DNA of 51,604 nt from the IMG/VR virus record IMGVR_UViG_3300036861_000596, positions 1-51,604 of that record; one strand, written 5' to 3'. Under the pieces are notes generated by a model. It saw nothing but the letters and a program-made list of their open reading frames with translations. It had not been told where the DNA came from and did no database searches. How positions within the stretch are numbered: position 1 is the first letter of the stretch; the number at the start of each line of letters is the position of its first letter. Positions 856 to 30,314 of the stretch are shown piece by piece. The DNA comes from a virus (taxonomy: Duplodnaviria; Caudoviricetes). Both the position numbers and the translations under genes were made by a program.

Positions 856-1152
856 TTAGCGGATGTAGACGAAACCGATCGTGCTGGAGGCGGTCGTGCT
901 GAGCTGGACTTTGACGGTCCCGCTGATCCGTAGAGGGACGCTGGTCTCATCCGCCCCCGCCCCACCCGTCTGGAGTCGAGAGATACGGTTGGTAGCGTTC
1001 GTGCCACCCTGGTAGAGAGTAATGGTCGCCGCCGCCCCCGACGAGAGCCGCATCGTCACGTAGGCACCCCCGCTCACCACCGGGACGGTCACGAGGTTGG
1101 CGTGGTTCAAGAGGGTGGCGAGGTTGAAGCCGACGAGGGTACCGATAGGCAC
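856..1152 (-). CDS. Small beta-rich putative virion protein
   Basis: 98 aa, Ser/Thr/Gly-rich, in late operon. Confidence 0.6.
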   Translation of the reverse strand: MPIGTLVGFNLATLLNHANLVTVPVVSGGAYVTMRLSSGAAATITLYQGGTNATNRISRLQTGGAGADETSVPLRISGTVKVQLSTTASSTIGFVYIR

Positions 1153-2597: not shown

Positions 2598-2729
2598 CTA
2601 CCGTGTCACCTGCCATCCGTGCTGGCGGCACCAGTGGACGTGGAGGGTTTTGGTCAAACGGAGGCTAAACCCCCAACTCGGGGCCCACCGCAGGTAGGAC
2701 TCACCGGCTCCGATGTAGTTACGGGGCAT
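2598..2729 (-). CDS. Small hypothetical protein (43 aa)
   Basis: MPRNYIG... fills the gap between coupled genes. Confidence 0.4.
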   Translation of the reverse strand: MPRNYIGAGESYLRWAPSWGFSLRLTKTLHVHWCRQHGWQVTR

Positions 2730-3393
2730 AGTCGGGGAGAGGGGCGCGCCAGAAGTCGGGCGGCTCGTTGGGGTCACCACCATGTTTCCAGTGGTAGCGC
2801 AGCCGATTCGCCATGAAGAGCAGGTCCTTTCGAGCGGCCCACGGGCAGGCCGTTACGACCTGGCGGGAGCCCGTGCGCGTCACGTTGGCCGCGGGGACAC
2901 TCACGAGCTGCACGCCGCTGAGGAGGGCCCGCTTGAAGAAGTCGGTGTCCTCGTACCAGGCCGGCACGAACGTCTCGTCGAAGGGGCCGACTTGCTCGGC
3001 CACCGACCGCGAGACGGCCCAGCACCACCCGCTGATCCCGAGCCCGTAGGGCTTGCTCCCGCCGGTGAGGGGGAAGGCGATGTGGCCCATGAGGGCAGCG
3101 TCGTAGAGGGGGCGGTCCCAGCCCGGCTCGACATGCGTCGTGGTGGTGACGAAGGCGAACACGTCGCCGTGGGCGAGCCGGCGCCCCTCGTTCCAAGCGG
3201 GAGCGATGCCACGGTTGGTGGGCCAGAGCGTCGCGGCGCTCGTCCGCAGGGGTCGGCGGTGAGGCGAGCCGTTATCGACGACGATGACTTCGAGGGGGAC
3301 CTCGGCGGTGTCCCAGATACGCTCGATATTGGCGTGGGCCATCTGTGCCAGTTCGGGAGTAACGTTCCAAACCGGGACAATCACGCTCAGCAT
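2719..3393 (-). CDS. Glycosyltransferase family 2
   Basis: LSVIVPVWN, EVIVVDNGS, NRGIAPAWNEG, GPFDETF, YEDTDF motifs. Confidence 0.9.
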   Translation of the reverse strand: MLSVIVPVWNVTPELAQMAHANIERIWDTAEVPLEVIVVDNGSPHRRPLRTSAATLWPTNRGIAPAWNEGRRLAHGDVFAFVTTTTHVEPGWDRPLYDAALMGHIAFPLTGGSKPYGLGISGWCWAVSRSVAEQVGPFDETFVPAWYEDTDFFKRALLSGVQLVSVPAANVTRTGSRQVVTACPWAARKDLLFMANRLRYHWKHGGDPNEPPDFWRAPLPDYAP

Positions 3394-3506
3394 CTTCGGC
3401 ACTCCGGTCGGGGGCAGACCGTCCCCACCCAGTGGAGATGGTCGTCGGCCACCCCGGGCGGGCGGGCAGCGACGATTCCGCGCGGCTCGACGACTTGCGA
3501 CTTCAT
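3387..3506 (-). CDS. 39-aa Cys/His-containing microprotein
   Basis: MKSQVVEPRG...HLHWVGTVCPRPECRRC; overlaps both neighbours. Confidence 0.45.
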   Translation of the reverse strand: MKSQVVEPRGIVAARPPGVADDHLHWVGTVCPRPECRRC

Positions 3507-4420
3507 AGAAACAACTCCGCCCACACGTGCATCGCCCGCTTCAACGTGCGCCAATAGCCGCTATCCGGCAGGACGAGCTTGTCGGCCAGCTCGTAGTAGC
3601 ACCGGGCCACGCTATCCTGCGTCAGGCGCACCTCGTCCACCCGCTCCCACAGCCACTCATTCGCCGCCTTCGGCTCGCGCTCCTTGATGAGGTTGATGTG
3701 GGGGTCGCTGGCCCGCTCGTGGCGTACCCACGGGCTCCCGCTGCGAACGGCGAAGCCGAGGTGATCGCACACCTTCTTCGACATGACCCCGGCCCATATA
3801 TCGCCGAAGCGGTCGTAGCCCCACGGCACGTCGTAGAGGAGGTGCGTGCCCATGAGCATGAAGTACATGGCCGGCACCATCTCCCGGCGGAAGGCGAGGT
3901 TCATGCCGCTCATCGGGTAGTAGCTTCCCGCCCCGATCCATCCCCTGATTCCTTCGTACTGGTAGGGCGGCGGGCTGGCGAGTTGCGTCTCAGCGTCTAG
4001 ATCGGGGATATGCGACCAGAGCCCGTGGTTGATGTGGGTTGGTCGGAGGCCCCGGTTCTCTGGCATGCCACGCGGCTTGATCGTGACGGTGGGCTTCCAA
4101 CGAGGCTCATCCGTCTCTAACCACTCGACGTGGTGCTTGAGCCAACGCCCGTCGGGATAGCAATCGTCGTCAATGGTGAGGATGTAGTCGGCCCCATCCC
4201 GCCACGCACGCCAGAACCCGTAGCTGCGAATACAGTCCGTCTGGCGGGGGATGATCCAGGCAGAATTCTTACCCAGCGCGTGGGTGATTTCTAACCACGT
4301 CTCCGGCTCGTCCAGCACCTCGTACACGCGCACGTCGAGGCGGTCGAACTCGGCCTTCCACTCTCGTCGCCACCGTTCGAGGCTGTCGGGGCGGTTGCTG
4401 GGACAGACGACGGCGATCAT
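3503..4420 (-). CDS. Reversibly glycosylated polypeptide / UDP-arabinopyranose mutase-like protein (GT75)
   Basis: YILTIDDDCYP, NHGLWSHIPDLDAETQL, YPMSGMNLAF, PAMYFMLMG, RFGDIWAG, KKVCDHLG, HERASDPHINLIKE parallel plant RGP motifs; ATG at 4420 overlaps the upstream stop. Confidence 0.88.
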   Translation of the reverse strand: MIAVVCPSNRPDSLERWRREWKAEFDRLDVRVYEVLDEPETWLEITHALGKNSAWIIPRQTDCIRSYGFWRAWRDGADYILTIDDDCYPDGRWLKHHVEWLETDEPRWKPTVTIKPRGMPENRGLRPTHINHGLWSHIPDLDAETQLASPPPYQYEGIRGWIGAGSYYPMSGMNLAFRREMVPAMYFMLMGTHLLYDVPWGYDRFGDIWAGVMSKKVCDHLGFAVRSGSPWVRHERASDPHINLIKEREPKAANEWLWERVDEVRLTQDSVARCYYELADKLVLPDSGYWRTLKRAMHVWAELFL

Positions 4421-5016
4421 CTCGTCGGCACCTTCACCGCCTCGACCCGCACCGTCGGGATCTGGGCGGCATGGTAGTCCTTCCCCGGCCCCGTCACGTA
4501 TCGCAAGAACCCCCCAAGCATGACGAGCAGGCCGAGGGAGTCGGCGGTATAGCCGTAGTAGTGCCCATCGATGAGGGGGTTGTCGTAGCCCCCGTAGATC
4601 CCCCCCACCATGATCCCGACGTTCCCCGCGAGCCACTCCTGGCACATGCGCCGCATGTCGGGGGTCTCGGCGATGAATAGGCCGTTGGGGCGCAGGACCC
4701 GGTGGGCCTCTCGGGCGATGTGGAGCGCGGCGACGGGCGGGACGTGTTCGAGCGCCTCGAACATCGTCACCTTGTCGTAGGTGGCATCCCCGAGGGGCCA
4801 GGGCTCGCGGAAGTCGAAGGCGAGGTCCTGGGCAAAGACCGGCTGCACATCGACGTTGGTGGCGCCCGGGATCGGGTTGACCCCCGAGCCAAGGTTGAGG
4901 TGGTCGGGACCGTCGTAGCCGATCCACTTGAGGCGGGGATCCATGCTCGTATCGACGGGCCAGCGGGCCCGCATCGCTTGACCGGCGGCGTAGTAGAGCG
5001 GCGGGTACTCGCTCAC
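4417..5016 (-). CDS. Class I SAM-dependent methyltransferase (Methyltransf_11-like)
   Basis: LNLGSG, NVD, EALEHV, HRVLRPNG, ETPD motifs. Confidence 0.88.
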   Translation of the reverse strand: MSEYPPLYYAAGQAMRARWPVDTSMDPRLKWIGYDGPDHLNLGSGVNPIPGATNVDVQPVFAQDLAFDFREPWPLGDATYDKVTMFEALEHVPPVAALHIAREAHRVLRPNGLFIAETPDMRRMCQEWLAGNVGIMVGGIYGGYDNPLIDGHYYGYTADSLGLLVMLGGFLRYVTGPGKDYHAAQIPTVRVEAVKVPTR

Positions 5017-5954
5017 AGAAGCGCCCCCATCGCCGCCTTCAGGGCGGCCCGTTCCCCCTCCAGCGGCAGTACCTCCTGCACCCCCCGGCTCATCACCCGC
5101 CCCTCCTCAGCGATCTCGACGACGGGACGGCGGAGGAGCCGCTGCGCCTGGGCGGTGAAGTCGGTCGTGTCGCTCGACAGCACCACGTCCATCCCGCACC
5201 GCCGCATGAGCATGTCGCTGCTGTGCCCGCCGTAGCCGAGCACGTAGCACCCGCAGGCCCCCGCCTCGAACGGGGGGAGTGTCCCGCCCTCGGGATAGCC
5301 GAAGGCGAAGAACACCAGGGACTCTTGCAGAATACGGCTCGTCTCCGCCTCGGACTGCCCGTCGATGGCGACCACGTCCCACCCGTCGAGAGCCCCGCTA
5401 AACCGCAACCACCCGAACACCTGCTGCGCCTCGTCGGGGTGCTTCCGGGGCATCCACGCGATCTGCCGACGCTTGGCCGTGCCGAGCGGGAAGGTGAGGG
5501 GGTCGATCCCGTGGGGGACGACGTGGACGGGGTGGTCGGGGAATACCGCCCGCAGCGCATCCCGACAATAGTCGGTCAGCACCATCGTCCCCACGACGCG
5601 CGGGTCCCGGTAGGGGGTGGCGCAGTCAGGCGGGGGTGGGACTGAGTAGCCCCGGAATGTGTAGTGCGAGTTCTGGTTGAAGACGATGGTCCGCACGCCG
5701 GGCGGGGCAATCTCGGCCGTGTTCGGGCCCATGATCTCGTTGGTGACCAGCACGTCCCCAGCGCGGAGCGCGACGCCGTCCAGGTACGCGACGGGGTAGT
5801 CGTGGCTGATCCAGGGGTACCGAAACCCGGGCGTGACGTGGAGCAGCCGAGCCGACCAGCCCATCTCGTCGAGCAGGCGGACGTGGCGGACGTGGGTCTT
5901 GGTGCCCCCGGAGGGCGGGCGGTGGTCCGCCGCACTGGGCAGGTAGTAGATCAT
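5013..5954 (-). CDS. Glycosyltransferase, GT-B/GT4-like
   Basis: PSGGTK N-terminal loop, VVPHGID, WMPRK, EGGTLPPFEAGACGC (EX7E). Confidence 0.85.
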   Translation of the reverse strand: MIYYLPSAADHRPPSGGTKTHVRHVRLLDEMGWSARLLHVTPGFRYPWISHDYPVAYLDGVALRAGDVLVTNEIMGPNTAEIAPPGVRTIVFNQNSHYTFRGYSVPPPPDCATPYRDPRVVGTMVLTDYCRDALRAVFPDHPVHVVPHGIDPLTFPLGTAKRRQIAWMPRKHPDEAQQVFGWLRFSGALDGWDVVAIDGQSEAETSRILQESLVFFAFGYPEGGTLPPFEAGACGCYVLGYGGHSSDMLMRRCGMDVVLSSDTTDFTAQAQRLLRRPVVEIAEEGRVMSRGVQEVLPLEGERAALKAAMGALL

Positions 5955-7048
5955 CGCGCAGTCTCCACGCGGCCCTCATAACCGGCCGCCCTCACCTTCT
6001 CCGTTATCTCGTCCTCGAAGTTCCACGGCAACACCAACAGCTTCTCAACCGGCTCGTCGAGGAGGGTCTGGAGCGGGACGACCGGCACGTTGTAGGGGGT
6101 GATGAGACCCTGCTTGGCCGGGGTCTCATCCACGACGTATCGTAGGTAGGACGGCCCCAGTCCCACGACGGTGCAGAACACCGTCCCCTTCGCCGCCGCA
6201 CCGAACGCGCCCCAGGTATGGCGCTCGGTGTACGTGTCCCACCACCGTCGAATGCGCTCGTCGAGACGGGTGTGGAAGCGCTCGTACGGGGCCGGGGTGA
6301 GCAGTTGCGTCTCGGACGGGTCGTCCTCGGCGCTTGCCCGGGCCTTCATCGCCACGACCCGCACCGACCCCCCGTGGATCGGCAAGTACTCCAGGTTGAT
6401 GATGTGAAGGTCGTGCGCCGCGAGCAGGCGGCGCAGGCTCGTGATCGTCCAGTACGAGAGGTGCTCGTGGTAGATGGTGTCGAAGGCGATCCCCGTCAAC
6501 AGGTCGAGCAGGTACGGCACCTCGACCACGAACACCCCGTCCGGGGCGAGCAGGCGCGCCACCTCCCCGACGAAGGCATGCACCTCATCGACGTGGCCGA
6601 GCACGTTGAGGGCGGTGATGGCGTGGAAGGGGCCGACGAGGCCGAAGGCGGGGAAGGTGCCGCGCCACACGTCCTCATGCTGGGGGCTGGGGTCAATCCC
6701 GACCACGTCCCACCCGGCCGCCTCGGCGGCGACGAGGAGCGTGCCGTCGTTGGCCCCGATATCGAGCCACTTCCCCGGGTGTAGATACCCCCCAACCACC
6801 TCCACGAGGCGCTTGCAGTGGGCCCGGAAGGTGGTGCTCACCCCGCTCCGGTACGGATAGCCCGTGTAGAGCGTGGTAGGCGAGAGCACCGTCGTGAGCT
6901 GGCTCAGCCCACAGGCAGGGCAGCGGGCCACGACGAGGGGATAGGTATCGGGGTAGGGCGCGCTGGGCTTGCGGAGGGCGTTGGCGAGGGGTTGCTTGCC
7001 GAGGTCGAGCCACTCGATCGTCGGGGTCGCGCAGACCCGACACGTCAC
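5951..7048 (-). CDS. NDP-sugar C-methyltransferase (Zn-binding domain, SAM domain, C-terminal domain)
   Basis: CRVC, LDLGKQPLAN, CPACGLSQL, LDIGANDGTLL, YHEHLSY, HGGS, GAAAKG, KQG, LPWNF; GTG start at 7048 overlaps the upstream TGA. Confidence 0.92.
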   Translation of the reverse strand: MTCRVCATPTIEWLDLGKQPLANALRKPSAPYPDTYPLVVARCPACGLSQLTTVLSPTTLYTGYPYRSGVSTTFRAHCKRLVEVVGGYLHPGKWLDIGANDGTLLVAAEAAGWDVVGIDPSPQHEDVWRGTFPAFGLVGPFHAITALNVLGHVDEVHAFVGEVARLLAPDGVFVVEVPYLLDLLTGIAFDTIYHEHLSYWTITSLRRLLAAHDLHIINLEYLPIHGGSVRVVAMKARASAEDDPSETQLLTPAPYERFHTRLDERIRRWWDTYTERHTWGAFGAAAKGTVFCTVVGLGPSYLRYVVDETPAKQGLITPYNVPVVPLQTLLDEPVEKLLVLPWNFEDEITEKVRAAGYEGRVETAR

Positions 7049-8040
7049 GACGAGACCCCCAACAGGGCCGTCGTGGTCTCCTGCTGGCCCGGTCCCCTGA
7101 GCCAGTCGAGATACCCCAAGAACGTCCCGTCGCTGTGGGCCTGCGGGAGGATGCGCCGCCAGTACACAACCCCCGCCGCCGTCAACGCTGGCACCCAGCT
7201 CTCCCCGACGGGGGGACGCTGGAAGCACGGACTATCGCCCGGGAGCACGTAGTTGCGGTTGAGCTGGGTATCGAAGTGGCTCAATAGAAGGCCGGTATCG
7301 GCGTAGATGACGCCCCCGGCCTCGTCCCGCATCCGCATCATGAAGAAGCGGTCATGCCCCCAGCGGTTGCGGGTCTTCCCGCCCACGTCGTCGGGGGTGC
7401 TATCCTTGAGCACATCGTCAAACCACGGCCCCTTCAGCTTCCGCACATAGGCCATGTTGACGAGCATGCAGCCCGCCCCGGCGCTATGGATGGGGATGAG
7501 CGCCCCGAGCGGCCAGTCCCAGAAGGCCCCGGCCTCCGCGTCGAGGTAGAGAAGGGGCTCAACGGGCTCGATCTTCGTCGAGTACACCCCCGTGATGACC
7601 GCCGCCTCGGGGTGTTTCCGCATCGCCCCCCACAGCCGATAGAGCGTCGTGTCGGGGAACAGCACGTCATCGTCGAGAAAGCAGACCGTCTCGATGTTCT
7701 CGGCGAGGGCCGTCTCCAGGATGGCGTTGCGGGCGGCGGCCGGGAGCTTGCCCTTCTGCACCGTGTACGACATGGCGGTGTTGAGCGGGTGGAGAAGCTG
7801 GAGCAGGCTGATGAAGAACTCGACGGGGGGGAAGCCCCGCGTCGGGATGCCGATGGTGATGGCGGGCGCGCCCGGGCTCACCTTGATCGGCTCCTTGGCC
7901 CGGTACATGACCGGGTCGGGACCGCGCTCCGTATCGAGACGCCCCAACAACCGGGCGAACAACTCCTCCCCGGTGATCTCGTCGGGGAGGGGGCCCAGGA
8001 ACTCCGTCAGCAGCTTCGTCTGTCTCAGATCCAAGTTCAC
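7045..8040 (-). CDS. GT-A fold (GT2-like) phage glycosyltransferase
   Basis: IGIPTRG, ARNAI, FLDDDVLFP (DxD), AGAGCMLV, PWF, GHDRFF, IYADT. Confidence 0.85.
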   Translation of the reverse strand: MNLDLRQTKLLTEFLGPLPDEITGEELFARLLGRLDTERGPDPVMYRAKEPIKVSPGAPAITIGIPTRGFPPVEFFISLLQLLHPLNTAMSYTVQKGKLPAAARNAILETALAENIETVCFLDDDVLFPDTTLYRLWGAMRKHPEAAVITGVYSTKIEPVEPLLYLDAEAGAFWDWPLGALIPIHSAGAGCMLVNMAYVRKLKGPWFDDVLKDSTPDDVGGKTRNRWGHDRFFMMRMRDEAGGVIYADTGLLLSHFDTQLNRNYVLPGDSPCFQRPPVGESWVPALTAAGVVYWRRILPQAHSDGTFLGYLDWLRGPGQQETTTALLGVSS

Positions 8041-8063: not shown

Positions 8064-8450
8064 CTATTCAGGTACTGGCGGCCACTTCGGCAGGTCGGTC
8101 GTCTCCGTGAGGGGCGGGCCCACGGGCCGATACCCCCTCGTGTCGGGCGGGGTTGTCTGCGTCTTTGAGCGCATGCGCTGGAGCCACTGGCGTTCCATCT
8201 CCGCCCGCTGGCGGGCTTGCTGAGCCTGCTGAAAGCGCTCGAACGGCACCACAACCCCACCCCGCCCCGGCAGCGCATTCCCCATGAAGCGGGCGAGGGC
8301 GCTCAGGATATCGATGAAACTCATCGGGTGGGCGGGCTGGAGGCCCTGCGCAGCCCCTTCCGCCGTCGGGTCCGGCGTGAAGAGACCAGCAGGGCTCCCG
8401 CTCGCCTGGAGCGCCCGCACGAGGTCCGGCTCAAGCTCGTACGGGTTCAT
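8064..8450 (-). CDS. Hypothetical protein
   Basis: 128-aa ORF in late operon. Confidence 0.55.
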   Translation of the reverse strand: MNPYELEPDLVRALQASGSPAGLFTPDPTAEGAAQGLQPAHPMSFIDILSALARFMGNALPGRGGVVVPFERFQQAQQARQRAEMERQWLQRMRSKTQTTPPDTRGYRPVGPPLTETTDLPKWPPVPE

Positions 8451-8453
8451 CGG

Positions 8454-8969
8454 CTACTGTTCGAGGTAGATGTAGGTGGTGAGGTCGTTGTTGGCAGGGG
8501 CGAGGTCGGCGGAGGTGATGATGACCGCGCCGATGCGATCCCCGGCGACGACGGTGTCAACGTCCTTGTTCTGGACGGTGACCCAGCTCCGAACGCTCGT
8601 CGCGGCGTTGACGTTCGTGAACACGGTCGAGCCGTTCTTGGTCACGCGGACGCTGACAGTCCCGGCGGTGATGTGCGTGGAGAGGCAACTGGCCACGCCG
8701 ATGATGGAGCCGCCCCGCAGGGTCGGGACGGTATCCTCCGCCCCGGAGATGGCGGCGAGGTCGTGGACGGTGCTCGCCATCGACGTAGTGAGGTTGAGGT
8801 TGACGAAGGGCCCTACCGCCATCAACAGGCCCCCGACGTTCTGCGTGACAACGTCGCCGTTATTCAACAGGCCGGTCCCGACCGTCTGGGAGTCTCCCGA
8901 AGTGGCAAACTCCAGGAGGGTGCTCGACCCAACGAGCTTGAGGGGTGCGGACATGGTCTTACGAGCCAT
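8454..8969 (-). CDS. Putative head fibre/decoration protein
   Basis: 171 aa, beta-rich, after the capsid gene, AAGGA RBS. Confidence 0.6.
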   Translation of the reverse strand: MARKTMSAPLKLVGSSTLLEFATSGDSQTVGTGLLNNGDVVTQNVGGLLMAVGPFVNLNLTTSMASTVHDLAAISGAEDTVPTLRGGSIIGVASCLSTHITAGTVSVRVTKNGSTVFTNVNAATSVRSWVTVQNKDVDTVVAGDRIGAVIITSADLAPANNDLTTYIYLEQ

Positions 8970-8989
8970 CGATTGTCCTTATGGGAGGG

Positions 8990-9092
8990 CCCCCTCCCTC
9001 CACACACGGGCTGACACGCCGGCACCGGCGTCTCTCCGTGCCTAAAGGGGTGGAGGGAGGGGGGTTGCTTGAATAGCGCGGAAGGCTATTCA
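8990..9092 (-). other. Structured intergenic element downstream of the capsid gene
   Basis: 14-bp inverted repeat 8990-9003/9050-9063 with nested stems; second hairpin 9070-9077/9085-9092. Confidence 0.6.
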
Positions 9093-9105
9093 GGTGAGCT
9101 TAGAA

Positions 9106-10026
9106 CTAGGCTCCTGGCGAGCCCCACACCTGCCGCCAATCGACGCAGCCCCTCGACCAGCGGGCCCGCACAACCGACAGCATCGTGGTGTTCTTGATAT
9201 CAAAGTCGCTCGACGAGGTGAAGGGCAGGCGGTCGTAGGCCCGCAGTCCCATGTCGTTCACGTCCGAGGGCTTCGCCACGAACCAATACGCGTCCGTGTC
9301 GGTGATCTCGGACCAGAAGACCGGCGTGAGCCCCTCATTCTCCTCGTTGAGGATGTTCTTCTCGTTATCGGTCGTGTAGGGCTTGTCCGGGGACTTGAAC
9401 ACCTCCCCGTACACCCACCGCATCGCGGGGTTGGCCACGAAGTAGGCCGGCTGGGCCCCGATGCGGATGCCCTGGTCGTCGGTCAGGTTGGCGAAGTGGT
9501 TGAACACGGTCTGCGCCGCGCTGATCCCCAGGTCGGCCGCCCCCAGGTTGGAGATGGTGGAGCCGTTGTAGAGGGTGTGCGTGGCACAGATATCCGACCC
9601 GTCGGCCGCATCCTCGGTCCCGAACGAGTTGTTGAAGACGTTGCTGAAGTTGACTTCCTTGGTGAAGCGGTGCGACTTCGCAGCCGCCTTGGCGAGGCTG
9701 GCGACCAGCTCATCCTGGTCGTCGTCCTCCATCTCCTCCGTCACCTGCCACGCCACGCCGAACTTGGTGTGCGTGAACTTCTTGTCGAAGAGCTGCGCGA
9801 CCGAGGCGAGCGGGTAGTCCTCACCCTCCCCAACGACGGAGAAGGTCGGGAACCCGGTGAACCCGGTCACGTTCTCGAACTGACGCTTGCTCTTCTTCCA
9901 GCCGAAGAGCTTCTTCCAGGCGCTCTTCTTCTCGTCCAGGTCGCGCGACTGGATATAGACGGCGTCGATGAACGCCAGCCGACTCGTGAAAATGTCAGGG
10001 TAGTTGTTGCGAACCATCATGGGCAT
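9106..10026 (-). CDS. Major capsid protein (HK97 fold, Mu gpT-like)
   Basis: 306 aa; EGEDYP, HTKFGVAWQVTEEMEDDD, DWRQVWGSPGA end; follows scaffold and decoration genes. Confidence 0.88.
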   Translation of the reverse strand: MPMMVRNNYPDIFTSRLAFIDAVYIQSRDLDEKKSAWKKLFGWKKSKRQFENVTGFTGFPTFSVVGEGEDYPLASVAQLFDKKFTHTKFGVAWQVTEEMEDDDQDELVASLAKAAAKSHRFTKEVNFSNVFNNSFGTEDAADGSDICATHTLYNGSTISNLGAADLGISAAQTVFNHFANLTDDQGIRIGAQPAYFVANPAMRWVYGEVFKSPDKPYTTDNEKNILNEENEGLTPVFWSEITDTDAYWFVAKPSDVNDMGLRAYDRLPFTSSSDFDIKNTTMLSVVRARWSRGCVDWRQVWGSPGA

Positions 10027-10039
10027 CTACATATCCCCC

Positions 10040-10525
10040 TTACACACCGACCCGGCTCTTGCCGGCCAGCCAGTGCTCGCTGATCTTGACGATGAGGGGG
10101 ATGTTCTTCCCGAAGGCCACGTCCGGGTCCTTCCCGATGATGCGGAGCTGGGCGGTCGCGGTCGTGGCGGTGGAGATATCCAGCTCGTGCTGAGACTTCA
10201 GGAACGTTGCATTCCCGGTGGTGGCGAGAATATCGGCGTTGGTGCCGATGGTGGTCTGGGCAGGGGTCCCGGCGGCCCCGTCGTCCTGGATGTAGTACTG
10301 CTGGTCAGGATGGTCGGAGACGAGGACGGTGTTGTAGGTCGCGCTCTTATATGAGAGCGCCATCCCGACGAGGAAGGTGTTGCCGGCGGTGGCGATGGCG
10401 GCTTTGCCATCGACCCGCATGAGAACGGCATCACCCGGATAGATAGCGGCGCTGGTACCGGCGTTGTACTCCTTCATGTGAAGGATGCGCCCCGCCGGCC
10501 AGAACCCGCGAGGGTTGTCAGCCAT
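10040..10525 (-). CDS. Capsid decoration/cement protein
   Basis: 161 aa, DNPRGFWP...IYPGDAV...DHPDQQYYIQ; directly upstream of the capsid gene. Confidence 0.65.
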   Translation of the reverse strand: MADNPRGFWPAGRILHMKEYNAGTSAAIYPGDAVLMRVDGKAAIATAGNTFLVGMALSYKSATYNTVLVSDHPDQQYYIQDDGAAGTPAQTTIGTNADILATTGNATFLKSQHELDISTATTATAQLRIIGKDPDVAFGKNIPLIVKISEHWLAGKSRVGV

Positions 10526-10527
10526 AG

Positions 10528-11046
10528 TTAGGTTGCCTTTTCGATCTCCGCTGCGCTCAGGTCATCAGCGCCCAGGTACACCTTCGGCGGGGTAACCCCA
10601 GCAGAGCGGGAGAGACGAGCGACTTCTTCTTTGAAGCGCTCAGGGTTGCGGGAAGTTTTCGTTTGGTCGATGGTGCGGTCGCGCGTGCGGCGGCGGCGCT
10701 CGCGGGCCAGGCGGCCCGGTATCACGCCGAGGAAGGCGTCCTCGTTCCAGCGGATCAGGTTGTCGACCGAGATGCGAATCCCCGGTGCGCACCGTCCCCG
10801 CTCGATGAGGGCCCTGTCGGCAGCATCCGGCGAGTAGGCTTCGTATCCACGCCACCCGCCGCCACGATCAATGTACGGCTTCGAGAGCCACCGCCATTCC
10901 TTGTCCCCGCTCTTGAACTTGGCGAGGATAGATTTGGGGGGGCTCGGGATGCCGTCTCGATTCCACAACTCCTCTACGTCGATGTACTCACCCGCTTCCA
11001 CCGTCTCGGCAACCACGTCTACTTTCGGCTTCTTCTGAAAGGCCAT
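10528..11046 (-). CDS. Hypothetical head-module protein
   Basis: 172 aa between scaffold and decoration genes. Confidence 0.6.
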   Translation of the reverse strand: MAFQKKPKVDVVAETVEAGEYIDVEELWNRDGIPSPPKSILAKFKSGDKEWRWLSKPYIDRGGGWRGYEAYSPDAADRALIERGRCAPGIRISVDNLIRWNEDAFLGVIPGRLARERRRRTRDRTIDQTKTSRNPERFKEEVARLSRSAGVTPPKVYLGADDLSAAEIEKAT

Positions 11047-11050
11047 CTCG

Positions 11051-11860
11051 CTAACTCACCACGATGTTGCGACCCGCCCGCTTTGCAGCGAGGGTCTTGG
11101 CAAAGATTTTGGGGTCCACACCGCCCGCTTCAGCCATGTCGCGCTCCCGCTGGGTCAGCTTCACCTCGTCCCCCTCATCAGCGACGGGGCGACGGGCGCC
11201 ACGCCCGACGTTCTGCGACTCCACCTCGATCGTCTTGTCCACGTTCGAGCGCCGGGCCTTCGGGGCGAGCCCGAGACGGCCAGCGGCCCGCTCTGTCGCG
11301 GTGTAGTGGGCGTTGGGCAGGGCCCGCTCCCAGTCCGTCATCTCCCGGTGGTAGATCTGCATGCCGACCTTGTGCAGCTCACTCGACGTGTCGTAGGCTT
11401 CCGGCCACGCCTCGCGCAGGGCGGACGAGGCCCGCTCGTGCTCCTGGTCGTTGCGGTAGCGGGCGTAGCCCTGTTGGGACGCCTCCTCGATGAGCTGGCG
11501 GCGCTCGTCGGCGGCGACCGCGGTGCGCTTGGCCTCCAGGCGGCGGTACGCCTCGTAGGGGTCGATGCGGGCGAGTTCGCGGAGAGCGGCCTCGTCGTCA
11601 TCGGCCTGGCCGGTCGGCTTCGTTTGCCCCGCCCGCTGATACGCCTCGATAACGGTCTTGGCGACGCCGACGGCCTGCTGGTACTTGGGGAACTCGGTCT
11701 CCAACTGCTGCCAGCGGGCGGCCTTGCCCTTGTACGCCTCGGGCTCATCCTCGATGCCGTACTTCTCCTTGACGTAGCGGCGGAGGGTGGTCTCGTCGGG
11801 CTCGGCGGGGGGCGGTGGGGTGGGCGGGGTGGCGGGTGTGATCTCGATCGGCTCAGCCAT
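11051..11860 (-). CDS. Capsid scaffolding protein
   Basis: Charged and helical, Pro-rich N-terminus, VKLTQRERDMA C-terminal motif; position after portal. Confidence 0.7.
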   Translation of the reverse strand: MAEPIEITPATPPTPPPPAEPDETTLRRYVKEKYGIEDEPEAYKGKAARWQQLETEFPKYQQAVGVAKTVIEAYQRAGQTKPTGQADDDEAALRELARIDPYEAYRRLEAKRTAVAADERRQLIEEASQQGYARYRNDQEHERASSALREAWPEAYDTSSELHKVGMQIYHREMTDWERALPNAHYTATERAAGRLGLAPKARRSNVDKTIEVESQNVGRGARRPVADEGDEVKLTQRERDMAEAGGVDPKIFAKTLAAKRAGRNIVVS

Positions 11861-11861
11861 G

Positions 11862-12065
11862 CTAGGCGGTGTCCTTTCTCTGCATCTCACGAAGGCGACT
11901 CAGCGCCATCTCCACCCCTTCCAGGCGACCGAGGGCGAGGGCGTGGTCGGAGGTGGGGGCGCGGGCGGCTCGCTTCAACAGATCGGTTTGGATAGCGGTG
12001 AGGGTGGCGAAGATCGCATGCCAGCCCTCCTCTTGGGCAAAGAACTCCCTCAACGCAACGTCCAT
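11862..12065 (-). CDS. Small protein between portal and scaffold
   Basis: 67 aa, helical. Confidence 0.6.
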   Translation of the reverse strand: MDVALREFFAQEEGWHAIFATLTAIQTDLLKRAARAPTSDHALALGRLEGVEMALSRLREMQRKDTA

Positions 12066-12087
12066 TCAGCTTCTCCGGGTAGGGGGG

Positions 12088-14325
12088 CTAGAAGGTGAGC
12101 CCGCCGGGCTGCGGGGGGCGCGGGACCTGTGTGGGCCCGCCGCCGACCCCCGCCGGGAGCCCCGGTTGGGGCTGGGGCTGGGCCGCCATCATCATCTGCT
12201 GCATCTGCTGGGCGAGCATCTCCTGCATCGCGGCTTGCTGGCGGGCTTGGAGCTGGTGCTGCGCGACGAGCCGCACTTCTGGAGCGAGCCCGACCGCGTC
12301 CGGCGACTGGAGGTACCGCCCGAGCTTATCGACGATGACCTGGTGGTTCTCCCCCGGCATCGGCAGCACGTCCTCCCCAGCGAGCACGCGCCCCAACACC
12401 TCGTCAGGGTTGCGGGCGGCCGGCTGGGGCGGGGCCTGGATGATACGCTCGATGTTGGGCACGTCGAACACCTTCAACAACTGGCGGTACCACTCGGCGA
12501 TCCCCTGCGGGGTCATCACGCCCATTTGCATCAGGAATCCCTGGACGTTTGGACCGAGCGGCCCCTGTGCGAAGAAGCTAAAGGTGTTGCGCTCGATTTC
12601 GCGGTCGGTCGAGAGGGAGTTACCGGTGAACTTGAGGTCGAGCAACTTCGACAGGTCGTCACGGGTCACCACCACGTCCGGCGCGCCGAGGGCCCCACGG
12701 ATACGCACCTCGCGCCCGGGCGGCATGTACTGGCGGTAGAGGGCGAGGATCTGCGTGAGGAGGCGCTTGAAGTCCTCCTGGATGCGCCGAACCTGGAGGT
12801 CGTTCCCGATGGCGCTCTGGGAGGCAAGCTGCTGCACGCCCGTCGCGGTCCGCGAGGCACCCTGCGTGTCCCCGGGCCGCCCCATCGTGATATCGTTCAC
12901 CTTCGTGCGCTTCTCGATCAGATCCCAAATGACGCGTTCCTCATCGCGCCGCCACGCCGTATAGTCGGCGGGCTGGGCCATCTTCACCGCGTTCACATCA
13001 TCGACGGGGATCATGACGCCCGGCTCAAGGGGCACACGCTCGGCCGGCAACCCAGCCTGGGGCTGATACCACCCATACGGGGTATTGCCGATGGTGCCCG
13101 CATCGATCCGCTGGTTGTGGATCGTGTTGATCTCGGCTTGCAACCCGTCGAGGATGAAGGGGTACCCGACGGACCAGAAGGCATCGGCAACGGGGAACAT
13201 GCCGAAGGTGACGAAGGGGCGCATCCCGTGCCGGTACACCTCTTCCAGCCGGTTAACCCGCAGCACGATATCGGGCTTCTCCTTGACGACGGTGCCGATG
13301 ATCTCCTCGTCGTACCCATCATCGTTGACATCGTACTTGCGGTAGCTGTCGAGCAGCTCGATCCGGGAGGGGGTACCGACGCGCTGGGTCTCGGCCGCGC
13401 CGGTGATGGCCTCCCGCACTTCCTTCGCCCCGGAGGTGTTGGTGTCGGGGGCCTTGGAGGGGTCCTCCAGCAGCTCCAGGTCCTCCAACTCGGACTTGTC
13501 GAGCTTGCGGAACGTCCCCTTCCGGCACTCCCGCTTGATCTGGTCTAGCGTGAGCCAGTAGCGGTGGGTGACGTGGTCGGCGCGCTGGAGGTCGGCGGGC
13601 GCGTCCGACTCGACGCAGAAGTCCTCGGGGTTCACGTAGGTGATGAGGGGCGCGTCCCGGACCACCTCGTTGCGCTCGGTGAACACGTAGACCTTCGTCG
13701 GGGTCTTCTCCACCTCGACGACGCGCTTGCCCTTCTCGGCCACCATCACGACGTACTCTTGGGCCTGCTCGGGCGAGCCCCCCGTCCGCTGGACCGCCTC
13801 GACGAGGGTCGTCTCGGCCTGGTAGATGGCCTGGAGCGCCTCTTGGAGGGGCGTGTCGGGGGGGAACTCGTGGCGGTCCCGGACGTGGCGAATCTGAAGA
13901 TCCCACGTCACCTTCACCGGCTGGGTCCCCACCACGCACGCGCTGAGCAAGACCCGGTCCATGATGGGGAAGAGGGCACAGTCCTCCCGCACGGCCCAGT
14001 CGAGGAACTGCTCCTGCTTCTTGGCGTATTCCTCGTCGGAGGGGTCCTGGGGCTGGAAGGCGGCGATAGGCTCGGGCTTGAAGAGGGCCGCCATGTAGCG
14101 CGGGTGGGCCGTATCGATGACCGTTGCGGTCACCGGCACGAACAGATTCGACGCCCCCTCCCACGGCTCGTCCTTGGCGACGGGGCGGTTCTGGTACATC
14201 GCCAGCCACTTCGGCAGATCGTCGAGCCACTGCTGCCGGTCGTCGTTATCGTCCTCCCAGTCCTCGACGATGAGTTGGCCGAGTTCGGTCAGCTCCTCCG
14301 CGGGCAACTCGACGTGCTTGGGCAC
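12088..14325 (-). CDS. Portal protein (podovirus-like)
   Basis: 745 aa after TerL; PWEGASNLFVP, Q/P-rich C-terminus. Confidence 0.88.
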   Translation of the reverse strand: MPKHVELPAEELTELGQLIVEDWEDDNDDRQQWLDDLPKWLAMYQNRPVAKDEPWEGASNLFVPVTATVIDTAHPRYMAALFKPEPIAAFQPQDPSDEEYAKKQEQFLDWAVREDCALFPIMDRVLLSACVVGTQPVKVTWDLQIRHVRDRHEFPPDTPLQEALQAIYQAETTLVEAVQRTGGSPEQAQEYVVMVAEKGKRVVEVEKTPTKVYVFTERNEVVRDAPLITYVNPEDFCVESDAPADLQRADHVTHRYWLTLDQIKRECRKGTFRKLDKSELEDLELLEDPSKAPDTNTSGAKEVREAITGAAETQRVGTPSRIELLDSYRKYDVNDDGYDEEIIGTVVKEKPDIVLRVNRLEEVYRHGMRPFVTFGMFPVADAFWSVGYPFILDGLQAEINTIHNQRIDAGTIGNTPYGWYQPQAGLPAERVPLEPGVMIPVDDVNAVKMAQPADYTAWRRDEERVIWDLIEKRTKVNDITMGRPGDTQGASRTATGVQQLASQSAIGNDLQVRRIQEDFKRLLTQILALYRQYMPPGREVRIRGALGAPDVVVTRDDLSKLLDLKFTGNSLSTDREIERNTFSFFAQGPLGPNVQGFLMQMGVMTPQGIAEWYRQLLKVFDVPNIERIIQAPPQPAARNPDEVLGRVLAGEDVLPMPGENHQVIVDKLGRYLQSPDAVGLAPEVRLVAQHQLQARQQAAMQEMLAQQMQQMMMAAQPQPQPGLPAGVGGGPTQVPRPPQPGGLTF

Positions 14326-17035: not shown

Positions 17036-17112
17036 TGGCTGCCGAGGCTGGCCTCGAACCAGCGACCCCCTCGTTAACAGCGAGGTGCTCTACCGGGCTG
17101 AGCTACTCGGCA
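17036..17112 (-). tRNA. tRNA-Asn (GTT) with encoded CCA
   Basis: Acceptor TGCCGAG/CTCGGCA, D stem GCTC/GAGC, anticodon arm CCTCG-CTGTTAA-CGAGG, T arm GCTGG-TTCGAGG-CCAGC, G73, CCA. Confidence 0.95.
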
Positions 17113-19814: not shown

Positions 19815-20588
19815 ATGAGTCCACTTACCGACTACCAGTACCGGCGATTCGTCGCCCGGTTCAACGAGTACCAGGCGGGCCACCCGTCGCCACTACTGGT
19901 CGAGCAGCTCCGGGAGTGGCTCGCCACTCTCCCGGTGAGCGCTCAGGCACATGCCCGGGCCGCGCTTAAGCGGGCCCTCGGGCGCCTCGTCGAGTGGGAC
20001 GACGTGGGCGTCGCTCGCTATCGTCGGAATCGCGCCACCCTCCAGGCCAGCATCTTGAGCACCCGTGAGCAGGACACTCTCCTCGCCAGTCTCCAGACGA
20101 GCCGGGAGCGGGCGGCCGCACATTGCCTGTTCACGCTACGCCGGGTGGAGGTGGCGCGGATGGCGTGGTCGGATATCGATTGGGCTGAGCGGGTCGCCTA
20201 CATCCCCCGGGGCAAGCAAGACAAGCCGCGGTGGACCCTGTTGTCGGCGGGGGCCGTCGAAGCGCTCGCCATGCTCTACGCCGAGGAGGCGCGCCCCACA
20301 TCGGGGCCGGTGTTCCGGTCGTTGCGGGGCGGCCACCTGCGGCCGAACAGCCTGGGGACGTGGTTCGACGGGCTGGTCCGGCGGGCGGGGCTCAAGCGCC
20401 CCGGCCGTAACTGCCACGCCCTCCGCCGGACGATGGCGACGAGCTACCTCCGGGCCAACCCCGGCGATCTAGACGGCTTGCGGGAGGTGATGGGGCACGA
20501 ATCCATCGCCACGACGGTTCTGTACAACTACCCCCAGCCGGCCGATCTAGCCCCGCGGCTCGCCCGCGCCCTCTCGCACTGCCGATAA
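19815..20588 (+). CDS. Tyrosine recombinase/integrase
   Basis: LRRVE (R), RGKQDK (K), HALRR (HxxR), MGH, TTVLY (Y). Confidence 0.9.
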   Translation: MSPLTDYQYRRFVARFNEYQAGHPSPLLVEQLREWLATLPVSAQAHARAALKRALGRLVEWDDVGVARYRRNRATLQASILSTREQDTLLASLQTSRERAAAHCLFTLRRVEVARMAWSDIDWAERVAYIPRGKQDKPRWTLLSAGAVEALAMLYAEEARPTSGPVFRSLRGGHLRPNSLGTWFDGLVRRAGLKRPGRNCHALRRTMATSYLRANPGDLDGLREVMGHESIATTVLYNYPQPADLAPRLARALSHCR

Positions 20589-28989: not shown

Positions 28990-29722
28990 GAAATTGCGAT
29001 GGGTAGCGTGGTTCTCCTGTGGAGCAGCAAGCGCGGTCGCCTCTAAGTTGACGGTCGAGCGACATGGTGCGGCCTGTGAAGTGGTCTACTGTGACACGCT
29101 AGCGACCGAGCACCCTGACAATGCCCGGTTTTTCTGCGCGGTTGAGGAGTGGATTGGTCAGCCTATCCGCGTGATCCGCTCATCCACGTATGACACGGTG
29201 GATGCAGTATTCGAGAAGACACATTACATGGCGGGGGTGTGGGGGGCTCGTTGCACGACTGAGATGAAAAAGCTGCCGCGACAACACTTCCAGCAACCTG
29301 GGGATGTTCACATATTTGGCTATACCGCCGAGGAAACAAAGCGGGCCCAGCGATTTGAGACGAACAACCCCGCGCTAGACGTGGAATGGGTGCTCATTGA
29401 GGCGGGAATCACGAAGGCGGAGTGTAAGGAGCGGTTGTCCGCAGCGGGGATTGCACTGCCCGCGATGTATGCGCTCGGCTTCAACAACAATAACTGTCTC
29501 GGTTGTGTTAAGGCCACGTCGCCTGGTTATTGGAATCGAGTTCGACGGCTCTTCCCGGAGGTGTTTGAGCGACGGGCCTGGCAATCCCGAAGCTTAGGTG
29601 TTCGACTTACGCGAGTACGTGGGAAGAGGATCTTCTTGGACGAGTTAGAACTCGAAGCTGATGCACCTGATGACACGGAAATTGATTGTGGGCCGGTGTG
29701 CCAGACCGTTGAGGCGACATGA
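28982..29722 (+). CDS. PAPS-reductase-like / adenine nucleotide alpha-hydrolase protein
   Basis: WFSCGAASA degenerate PP-loop, EHPDN, NNNCLGCVK. Confidence 0.75.
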   Translation: MNRKLRWVAWFSCGAASAVASKLTVERHGAACEVVYCDTLATEHPDNARFFCAVEEWIGQPIRVIRSSTYDTVDAVFEKTHYMAGVWGARCTTEMKKLPRQHFQQPGDVHIFGYTAEETKRAQRFETNNPALDVEWVLIEAGITKAECKERLSAAGIALPAMYALGFNNNNCLGCVKATSPGYWNRVRRLFPEVFERRAWQSRSLGVRLTRVRGKRIFLDELELEADAPDDTEIDCGPVCQTVEAT

Positions 29723-30162
29723 TCGTTAAGCCCGTCACATGTCAGGGCTGCCCCATGTTCCAGGACGGGCGCGGGTTCGTGCCTGACGAGATCGTGGACG
29801 GGGCGACCACCTTCGTGCTCGGGCAAAACCCGGGCGCGGACGAGGAGCGAGAGGGCCGCCCCTTCGTCGGCAAGTCGGGGGCGCTCATGGAGAAGGTGTA
29901 CTTCCCCATCGCGGGGCTCGTTCGGGGCGAATCGGTGTCGATCGGGAACGTGCTGCGGTGCCGGCTCATCGTCAACGGCAGGCGCTCCAACACGATGCCG
30001 GCGGGGGCCACGCTCAAGGCGGCCGTCGCCCACTGCACGGCGGCGTACCTGCGGATACCGGCGAGTACGAGGCTCGTCGTGGCGCAGGGGGCGTATGCCG
30101 TCAAGCTGATGGGTGGCGAGGATAAGAAGGTGAGCGAGTGGAGAGGGTTCTTGTTGCCATGA
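29719..30162 (+). CDS. Family-4 uracil-DNA glycosylase-like domain, N-terminal part
   Basis: CQGCP, GQNPG..E...GRPFVGKSG, NVLRCR, VVAQGAYA, WRG; lacks the terminal H-motif. Confidence 0.85.
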   Translation: MIVKPVTCQGCPMFQDGRGFVPDEIVDGATTFVLGQNPGADEEREGRPFVGKSGALMEKVYFPIAGLVRGESVSIGNVLRCRLIVNGRRSNTMPAGATLKAAVAHCTAAYLRIPASTRLVVAQGAYAVKLMGGEDKKVSEWRGFLLP

Positions 30163-30314
30163 GCTACGTCGTCTATCTCCACATCGTAATCGGGCTCGGC
30201 GTGGCGGCGGCCCGATTCCCTAACGTTGCGACAGCACCCTTCTGGGATATCCTCCTCACCGTTGCGATCTGGCCTGTGCTGATCGGCGGGTGGTTGTGGC
30301 GCACCCTACACTAG
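30159..30314 (+). CDS. 51-aa two-helix membrane protein (not in ORF track)
   Basis: MSYVVYLHIVIGLGVAAA...ILLTVAIWPVLIGGWLW; ATGA overlap. Confidence 0.6.
   Translation: MSYVVYLHIVIGLGVAAARFPNVATAPFWDILLTVAIWPVLIGGWLWRTLH

Follow-up and report, generated by a model that had tools for sequence, protein, structure and literature searches.

A putative GT75-family pyranose-furanose mutase in the glycan cassette of an uncultured tailed phage

The stretch of DNA analysed here, a window of 51,604 nucleotides, is the entire IMG/VR virus record IMGVR_UViG_3300036861_000596, which bears direct terminal repeats (measured at 127 bp) and is rated 100% complete. Its genes specify a large terminase, a portal, a capsid protein and tail fibres, together with a tyrosine integrase, a family-A DNA polymerase with an exonuclease subunit, a UDG-superfamily protein, a PD-(D/E)XK nuclease and a sigma-70 region-4 protein. 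The gene that concerns us lies on the minus strand at 3503-4420, and its translation, free of internal stops, yields a protein of 305 amino acids (aa) labelled P0001. A preliminary description, made from the DNA letters alone, had taken P0001 for a plant-type member of glycosyltransferase family GT75, i.e. a reversibly glycosylated polypeptide (RGP) or UDP-arabinopyranose mutase (UAM) encoded by a phage; this last point is secured by the complete phage genome with its structural genes. As read here, the gene is:

3503..4420, minus strand: P0001, putative GT75/RGP-family nucleoside diphosphate (NDP)-sugar pyranose-furanose mutase, 305 aa (Pfam match, fold and catalytic residues)

The eight motifs quoted in that description all occur in P0001 and in the order given (TIDDDC, RGMP, HGLWSHIPDLDAETQL, PMSGMNLAF, PAMYFMLMG, RFGDIWAG, KVCDHLG and HERASDPHINLIKE); the plant RGP motifs set beside them could be checked in part against the alignment with rice UAM2 and the available text of PMC6861824. 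The ATG at 4420 is taken as the true start because homologues begin aligning at residue 1-2 and because this codon and the stop of the gene before it share an ATGA. A longer stop-to-stop frame reaching 4927 was rejected as a gene, running as it does over the methyltransferase gene in a different frame. The G+C content at third codon positions is 0.85, against 0.87-0.92 in the neighbouring genes, so the gene is compositionally at home.

A Pfam search returned the RGP family (PF03214) for P0001 with an E-value of 3.6e-29 and 102.5 bits (cut-off 23.8), the aligned region being limited to residues 127-302 of the protein and positions 155-335 of the 342 in this largely plant-derived profile; scans of PHROGs and NCBIfam gave no match for P0001. 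A single-sequence search of the PDB retrieved the actinobacterial enzyme MtdL (E 7e-21) and rice UAM2 (8CID; E 5.5e-12), and a profile built from 39 relatives of P0001 scored both about equally (E 8.8e-39 and 136.5 bits for MtdL, E 1.4e-37 and 132.5 bits for rice UAM2). The AlphaFold2 model computed from the alignment of the 39 relatives has a mean pLDDT (per-residue confidence) of 96.9 and a predicted TM-score (pTM) of 0.93, and combines a GT-A-like Rossmann N-terminal domain with the family core and C-terminal helices as in MtdL. Compared by Foldseek, this model found MtdL entries (E 1.2e-20 to 1e-19, TM-score (TM) 0.72-0.76) and rice UAM2 (E 6.2e-18, TM 0.73) as the sole matches below E 1e-17, the next best, twelve orders of magnitude away, being generic GT-A transferases whose E-values start at 1.6e-05 and whose TM does not exceed 0.45. 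The motif and family match lies far beyond chance expectation, and the assignment of P0001 to GT75/RGP in the preliminary description is almost certainly right.

The known chemistry of the family can be mapped onto P0001 residue by residue. Roles were those given for MtdL in the available text of PMC9937993, and positions were transferred by reading the printed alignments of the PDB search:

Metal site, Mn2+: MtdL Asp109-Asp111 (DxD; Asp111 binds the metal), P0001 Asp84-Asp86
Mn2+ binding: MtdL His287, P0001 His234
Beta-phosphate binding: MtdL Arg257, P0001 Arg204
Nucleophile, arginine-sugar adduct: MtdL Arg159, P0001 Arg117
General base: MtdL Asp260, P0001 Asp207
Helper to the base: MtdL Asp195, P0001 Asp140
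Sugar contacts: MtdL Asp87, Ser228 and Gln229, P0001 Asp62, Ser171 and Gly172
Base selectivity: MtdL Thr13, Asn42 and Ser86, P0001 Pro7, Pro39 and Thr61
Diphosphate contact (loop A): MtdL Arg289, P0001 Arg236

Conservation was assessed over 149 non-identical homologues aligned with MAFFT, of which 71 are viral (the window included) and 78 come from GTDB genomes. Arg117, Gly118, Pro120, Asp140, Asp207, His234, Asp86 and Asp37 are found in every one of the 149 sequences, Asp84 in 148 and Arg204 in 138. Arg117 stands within R-G-M-P, where the pRGlP of the family profile aligns to PRGFP of MtdL and RGYP of UAM2, and is the counterpart of the autoglycosylated Arg158 of OsUAM1 and Arg159 of MtdL. 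According to the accessible parts of PMC9937993 and PMC6861824, inactive plant class-2 RGPs carry DDN and have lost both the Mn-binding His and the beta-phosphate Arg; none of these three marks is seen in P0001. Because the catalytic residues are all kept and the marks of class-2 inactivity are missing, P0001 is, on its sequence and predicted structure, a complete GT75 enzyme in catalytic terms, and we consider it very probably an active mutase. The available text of PMC9937993 describes GT75 mutases as working with no flavin, by means of a divalent cation and an arginine.

The same conserved Arg is the residue on which members of the family autoglycosylate (PMC9937993, PMC6861824), and plants have retained inactive class-2 copies (PMC6861824). 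Both facts could speak for an RGP of the non-catalytic or primer type, which would seed or scaffold a glycan as plant class-2 proteins or glycogenin do, and a self-glycosylating primer was the other role offered in the preliminary description. P0001, unlike the inactive class 2, has kept DDD, R204 and H234 altogether, and the Arg adduct is put forward in the Discussion of PMC9937993 as the catalytic intermediate of MtdL. A separate primer role is thus most improbable, the arginine-sugar adduct in GT75 being the proposed intermediate of the mutase itself.

The mutase gene belongs to a six-gene cassette on the minus strand, set between the head and the tail genes. The members of this cassette, with a possible small ORF (open reading frame) and two structural genes for context, are:

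7045..8040, minus strand: GT2b, GT2-like glycosyltransferase, 331 aa (Pfam Glycos_transf_2, E 1e-06)
5951..7051, minus strand: C-MT, NDP-sugar 3-C-methyltransferase-like protein, 366 aa from a GTG at 7051 (Pfam Methyltransf_13, which is the zinc domain, Methyltransf_23 and Methyltransf_14)
5013..5954, minus strand: GT1, GT-B (GT4/Glycos_transf_1-like) glycosyltransferase, 313 aa (weak Pfam Glyco_trans_1_2, E 0.0076)
4417..5016, minus strand: MT, class I S-adenosylmethionine-dependent methyltransferase, 199 aa (Pfam Methyltransf_23, E 4.6e-07; Methyltransf_11, E 1.4e-06)
3387..3506, minus strand: possible 39-aa ORF bridging the RGP and GT2a genes (uncertain), with a Cys-rich C-terminus (coupling only)
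2719..3402, minus strand: GT2a, GT2 glycosyltransferase, 227 aa (Pfam Glycos_transf_2, E 9.7e-08; PHROG 29879 'galactosyl transferase', E 1.5e-10)
9106..10026, minus strand: major capsid protein (Pfam Phage_capsid_4, E 1.7e-12; 59% identical to the copy in the related contig L002)
64..837, minus strand: glycine-rich (GGxGG-type) tail fibre or minor tail protein (PHROG 863, 356 and 416, all tail, E 3.1e-13 to 7e-06)

With one GT4-like and two GT2 genes in the cassette, the proximity of P0001 to glycosyltransferases (GTs) claimed at the outset holds. The best PDB matches of C-MT are D-mycarose 3-C-methyltransferase (4rv9, E 6e-52) and TcaB9 (E 2.4e-43), and it shows the layout of a zinc domain plus a C-terminal domain; homologues of GT1 carry PF00534/PF13692. 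Overlaps of 4 nt (GTGA or ATGA) join GT2b to C-MT, C-MT to GT1, GT1 to MT and MT to RGP, thereby chaining the first five genes: C-MT is bounded by one GTGA and one ATGA overlap, while MT begins with a GTG overlapping the GT1 stop (GTGA) and ends with a stop overlapping the RGP start (ATGA). The ATG of the 39-aa ORF overlaps the RGP stop, again as ATGA, and its own stop falls just beyond an in-frame ATG of GT2a; it would possibly carry the coupling chain over the 100-nt gap to that gene. On the head side the cassette is flanked by genes for the portal, a scaffold-like protein, the capsid protein and small proteins at 8454-8969 and 8064-8450, and on the other side the tail and fibre genes run from 2597 down to 64 and on across the terminal repeat at 50.9-40 kb. 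A consensus scan, which is a weak test, found no promoter-like or terminator-like site on the minus strand within the cassette. Convincing membrane segments were found in none of the six cassette proteins, the top Kyte-Doolittle mean over 19 residues being 1.71 at residue 171 of C-MT. The genome has no match to the epimerase/dehydratase family PF01370 or the nucleotidyltransferase family PF00483 and no thymidylate-synthase-like hydroxymethylase. There being no NDP-sugar-making gene in the genome, the precursors must come from the host.

Several features of the genome at large complete this picture. A megablast search with positions 1-25000 of the window found no DNA match among 50,697 phage records, and the portal and capsid proteins are 21-30% identical to those of uncultured, Pelagibacter, Roseobacter and cyanobacterial phages. 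Some 2.7 kb separate the tyrosine integrase gene (19815-20588, plus strand) from a full-length tRNA-Asn(GTT) gene (17036-17112, minus strand), the only tRNA gene of the genome; the phage is probably temperate, and the tRNA-Asn may be related to the attachment site or the host. Two small proteins, one beside the capsid gene (8454-8969, minus strand) and one among the tail genes (856-1152, minus strand), contain 23% Ser+Thr and match no family; both may be glycan acceptors or decoration proteins. The opposite strand of the fibre gene at 64-837 is open over 113-826 with a proline-rich product, an artefact of repeat composition.

Relatives of P0001 were looked for in IMG/VR and in the species genomes of GTDB with pattern scans, both resting on two peptide patterns and keeping the best 80 loci per collection. 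In IMG/VR, where some records are possibly misassigned, 117 stretches matched and 103 of them encode a relative, i.e. at least 103 viral contigs; in GTDB, 188 of the 209 matched stretches encode relatives, from Patescibacteria, Chloroflexota, Acidobacteriota, Planctomycetota, Pseudomonadota, Solirubrobacterales and others, which reach 49% identity to P0001 in the best-matching segment. An exhaustive search over 1.84 billion cluster representatives returned 1130 clusters at E<=0.001, 677 at <=1e-10 and 213 at <=1e-30. The nearest relatives of P0001 are viral contigs and bacterial metagenome-assembled genomes (MAGs), with 40-65% identity. Among the 120 best matches listed, all are prokaryotic, metagenomic or unnamed and none bears a plant name; the top two, 65% and 62% identical, are proteins on short metagenome contigs, and those with names come from MAGs of Dormibacterota, Anaerolineae/Chloroflexi, Gottesmanbacteria and Nitrospirota. 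A tblastn search of the 50,697 phage records found no GT75 gene in cultured phages and one match in all, a copy 36.7% identical in an uncultured 595-kb phage, and BFVD contains a UniProt protein of an uncultured Caudovirales phage under the name 'Reversibly glycosylated polypeptide (Fragment)' (E 1.3e-13). Moreover, the accessible part of a soil virome study reports viral auxiliary genes annotated as GT75 (PMC11032446), echoed in that of PMC12016548. The earlier statement that no characterised phage member was known thus stands in so far as none was found in the literature on RGP, GT75 or arabinopyranose mutase in phages, but presence of the family in phages had already been recorded: P0001 is an uncharacterised addition to a known enzyme family.

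A quick maximum-likelihood tree of the 149 viral and GTDB sequences (IQ-TREE, LG+G4, SH-aLRT support only, midpoint root) groups the window with two further viral loci, L002 and L024, at 100% support. The viral label changes 11 times on this tree, at least 5 of the changes being forced by well-supported branches, and virus-only clades comprise 25, 16 and 8 rows. Another virus-only clade of 11 members (L021, L023, L026, L027, L028, L045, L049, L052, L054, L056 and L059; 99% support) has Gln at the position of R204, and the central residue of its DDD motif is Asn or Thr, changes that accompany lost substrate binding in MtdL or plant class 2; several of its loci have, close by, genes for an HK97-type capsid protein and a dTDP-glucose-dehydratase-like protein; these RGPs may have an altered function. 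In a clade of large viral contigs of up to 205 kb (L037-L041, L057 and related loci), the RGP homologue has genes for DNA polymerase III alpha, dCMP deaminase and a P-loop ATPase in its vicinity instead of structural genes.

The two loci closest to the window deserve separate attention. L002, a contig of 16.4 kb, has portal, capsid and three other head genes at 30-59% identity to the window (53-59% for capsid and portal) with the cassette genes beside them, and is a true relative of the window phage. It keeps five of the six cassette genes (GT2b, C-MT, GT2a, GT1 and RGP) at 48-53% identity (GT2b 48%, GT2a 51%, GT1 50%) in a slightly different order, with GT1 adjoining RGP; no homologue of MT was found in this locus. 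Downstream of its mutase, at 11593-12168, L002 encodes an acyltransferase with hexapeptide repeats (Hexapep, E 3.9e-26). The window has no counterpart of it, which suggests that the glycan is acylated in the L002 phage. L024, a relative of lower GC (47.7 kb, GC 47-51%), has the mutase and a GT4-like gene 47% identical to GT1, and there GT1, a 324-aa protein matching no Pfam family and RGP form a module at 8078-10921. At 29719-32236 the window has the same junction of UDG and DNA polymerase A genes that flanks this module in L024, here without the module. In both L002 and L024 the GT1 homologue is within about 1 kb of the RGP gene. The GT4-like family of GT1 is small (52 proteins at E<=1e-05), and nine of its members lie on contigs equal in length to contigs that bear RGP matches, which suggests, short of proof, that the pair travels together. 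A GT1 homologue occurs in three IMG/VR loci; the mutase accompanies it in the two nearer ones and is missing from the third (34% identity, GC 25%). Across the 70 viral loci left after removal of 11 identical copies, the 135 immediate neighbours of RGP genes include 21 GT2 proteins, 18 dehydratases/epimerases of the short-chain dehydrogenase/reductase (SDR) family, 7 Methyltransf_24, 6 Methyltransf_23 or Methyltransf_11, 3 GT1 and 3 DNA polymerase III alpha proteins. The commonest SDR neighbour is nearest to dTDP-glucose 4,6-dehydratases (E 7e-47, under the NCBIfam cut-off).

The label 'plant-type' was not borne out: the nearest relatives are viral or bacterial and three signatures of plant class 1 are absent. 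The first DxD-like motif of P0001 is D37-E38-P39 and the third is D140-L141-D142 (DLD), versus DGD and DYD in plant class-1 proteins as given in the available text of PMC6861824. At the position of MtdL 86-87 P0001 has Thr61-Asp62, where the active plant RGPs (AtRGP1-3) have Asp-Ser, a plant state taken from the mutant design in PMC9937993; in MtdL, S86D abolished GDP binding and D87S abolished activity (PMC9937993). The middle residue of the third motif is in itself a weak marker (L in 27, F in 25 and Y in 14 of the 78 GTDB genome copies), and the 'DLD = bacterial' rule of the review PMC6861824, which was based on 9 bacterial sequences, fails among these copies and was dropped as a marker.

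Comparison with the characterised enzymes helps to frame the question of the substrate. The accessible text of PMC9937993 names as characterised bacterial GT75 mutases only MtdL of Marinactinospora thermotolerans and Hyg20 of Streptomyces hygroscopicus (PDB 7XPR, 7XPS and 7YUA), which interconvert the pyranose and furanose forms of GDP-L-galactose and GDP-L-fucose, besides a set of plant enzymes. P0001 has in common with MtdL the fold, the Mn site (DxD + His), the nucleophilic Arg, the base Asp and the beta-phosphate Arg, at 22-24% identity in the Foldseek alignment; it is about 70 residues shorter (305 versus 376 aa), missing the insertions of MtdL, and sits in a phage glycan cassette, whereas MtdL serves antibiotic biosynthesis in an actinomycete. 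Since Pro7, Pro39 and Gly172 take the place of Thr13, Asn42 and Gln229 of MtdL, both nucleotide and sugar preference may differ. With plant class-1 RGP/UAM (OsUAM1, AtRGP1-3) P0001 has in common the Pfam family, the DDD followed by Cys, the Arg of R-G-x-P, the motif order and Pro7; it differs from them in D-E-P, DLD and Thr-Asp instead of DGD, DYD and Asp-Ser. The solved plant structure is that of the rice class-2 UAM2 (8CID), to which P0001 is 20% identical in the Foldseek alignment.

UDP-L-arabinose is retained as one substrate candidate among several, and a plant-kind enzyme that makes UDP-L-arabinofuranose from the arabinopyranose form is unlikely. The plant UAMs do belong to the same family; Pro7 is the residue of plant UDP-using enzymes at MtdL Thr13, as the T13P substitution of PMC9937993 implies; Gly172 departs from Gln229 of MtdL just as the residue of rice UAM2 does; and several relatives of P0001 are called 'RGP/UDP-arabinopyranose mutase' by the Joint Genome Institute (JGI) pipeline, these being automatic names. 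On the other side are the Thr-Asp pair and the D-E-P and DLD motifs just described, a genome with neither UDP-xylose synthase nor 4-epimerase, and the action of the characterised bacterial members on GDP-L-fucose or GDP-L-galactose (PMC9937993). Neither the C-methyltransferase-like neighbour in the window nor the dTDP-glucose-dehydratase-like neighbours in other phages point to a pentose. No specificity was deduced from RmlB-like neighbours, which gave no link to the sugar-site residue: where an RmlB-like gene is close by, as in 10 viral loci, position 62 is in most cases Ser and not Asp.

On the whole, we think it likely that P0001 is a Mn-dependent GT75 mutase which feeds a methylated furanose glycan built by the cassette, probably on the virion. 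In such a pathway P0001 would take up an NDP-pyranose of the host and equilibrate it with the corresponding NDP-furanose. If the enzyme works as MtdL does, Mn2+ would be kept on the diphosphate by His234 and the third Asp of DDD84-86, with Arg204 binding the beta-phosphate; Arg117, part of the invariant R-G-x-P, would attack C1 to give a transient arginine-sugar adduct, the 'reversible glycosylation' of the family name, and Asp207, aided by Asp140, would shuttle the protons for ring opening and closure. A transferase of the cassette would then consume the furanose donor and pull the equilibrium, the first candidate being the GT4-like protein of 5013-5954, which is close to RGP in three phages, and a methylated furanose-containing glycan on a soluble cytoplasmic acceptor would be completed by the remaining GTs together with both methyltransferases. 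That P0001 feeds a GT of the cassette is, with this partner proposed from gene order, a probable part of the scheme; that the glycan is placed on a virion protein we hold to be an even call. A virion acceptor is favoured because the cassette occupies a late-structural position in two of the three related phages, because membrane components are missing and because there is a precedent: mycobacteriophages glycosylate capsid and tail-tube proteins with GTs of their own (Freeman 2023, as cited in the available text of PMC12363180). The cassettes of Che8, Corndog and Myrna are thought to decorate capsid or tail in this manner, and the P0001 cassette may do likewise.

Several observations weigh against this proposal. 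The specificity residues of P0001 form a mosaic of plant and MtdL states: Pro7 is in the plant (UDP) state of MtdL Thr13, Thr61-Asp62 and Ser171 resemble Ser86-Asp87 and Ser228 of MtdL, Gly172 replaces Gln229 as it does in the class-2 rice UAM2, and Pro39 fits neither state. C-MT should need an NDP-4-keto sugar, for which the phage encodes neither a source nor a reductase: PF01370 found no match, and SDR-family dehydratases and ketoreductases are both lacking. On this reading the pathway is therefore incomplete. In L024 the module belongs to the replication region, with the UDG-superfamily gene on one side and DNA polymerase A on the other, and is not among structural genes. Late-operon placement is therefore not universal, which weakens the argument for a virion target. 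Finally, the tyrosine integrase leaves a role in the lysogen possible.

This integrase, the location of the L024 module outside the structural genes, and the soil-virome papers that take viral GT75, on annotation only, as cell-wall biosynthesis (PMC12016548, PMC11032446, in their available portions) would all suit a cassette that modifies the host envelope, for lysogenic conversion or superinfection exclusion, with the mutase supplying furanose for a surface glycan. Such a role we judge rather improbable. Temperate phages do carry GTs that modify surface glycans, but here the cassette has no flippase, polymerase, membrane GT or clear transmembrane segment, and its genes, translationally coupled within the capsid-to-tail run, lack a separate promoter-like site, suggesting that they are expressed along with the late genes. 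The replication setting of L024, between the UDG-superfamily gene and DNA polymerase A, and the occurrence of RGP near dCMP deaminase and DNA polymerase III genes in other viral loci, could also be taken to mean that the module glycosylates phage DNA, the furanose being a base hypermodification. T4-type DNA glucosyltransferases have the GT-B fold. Nonetheless, DNA glycosylation of hydroxymethylated bases is unlikely because the genome has no thymidylate-synthase-like hydroxymethylase; no base-modification family turned up among the ORFs scanned in the replication region, the cassette stands among structural genes in both the window and L002, and we give this reading very little credence.

The flavin-dependent UDP-galactopyranose mutase (Glf/UGM), in the sources available, catalyses the same type of reaction, from NDP-pyranose to NDP-furanose, as GT75 does with a divalent cation and an arginine, using instead an unrelated fold and FAD. 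To our knowledge, furanose sugars are absent from mammals. They are strong antigens and receptor determinants. At its boldest, the material could be read as a lineage of ~50-kb phages of uncultured hosts with a mobile core of GT75 and a GT4-like furanosyltransferase, a novel NDP-furanose (e.g. a pyrimidine-NDP 6-deoxy- or C-methyl-hexofuranose) and a virion coat of methylated furanosides, GT75 being an old and recurrent flavin-independent phage route to furanose donors; as a whole this is a speculation we would back at long but not negligible chances. What the present data do place on record is that phage glycan cassettes contain intact GT75 mutases, and that these form deep virus-only clades across at least 103 viral contigs. 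If active, the phage copies would extend the range of substrates known for GT75, a family wanted for the enzymatic synthesis of NDP-furanoses, and would add a furanose branch to phage glycosylation, so far shown for the virions of mycobacteriophages. Compact (305 aa), confidently folded and easy to express, P0001 makes the question directly testable and offers an easy entry point to phage furanose glycosylation.

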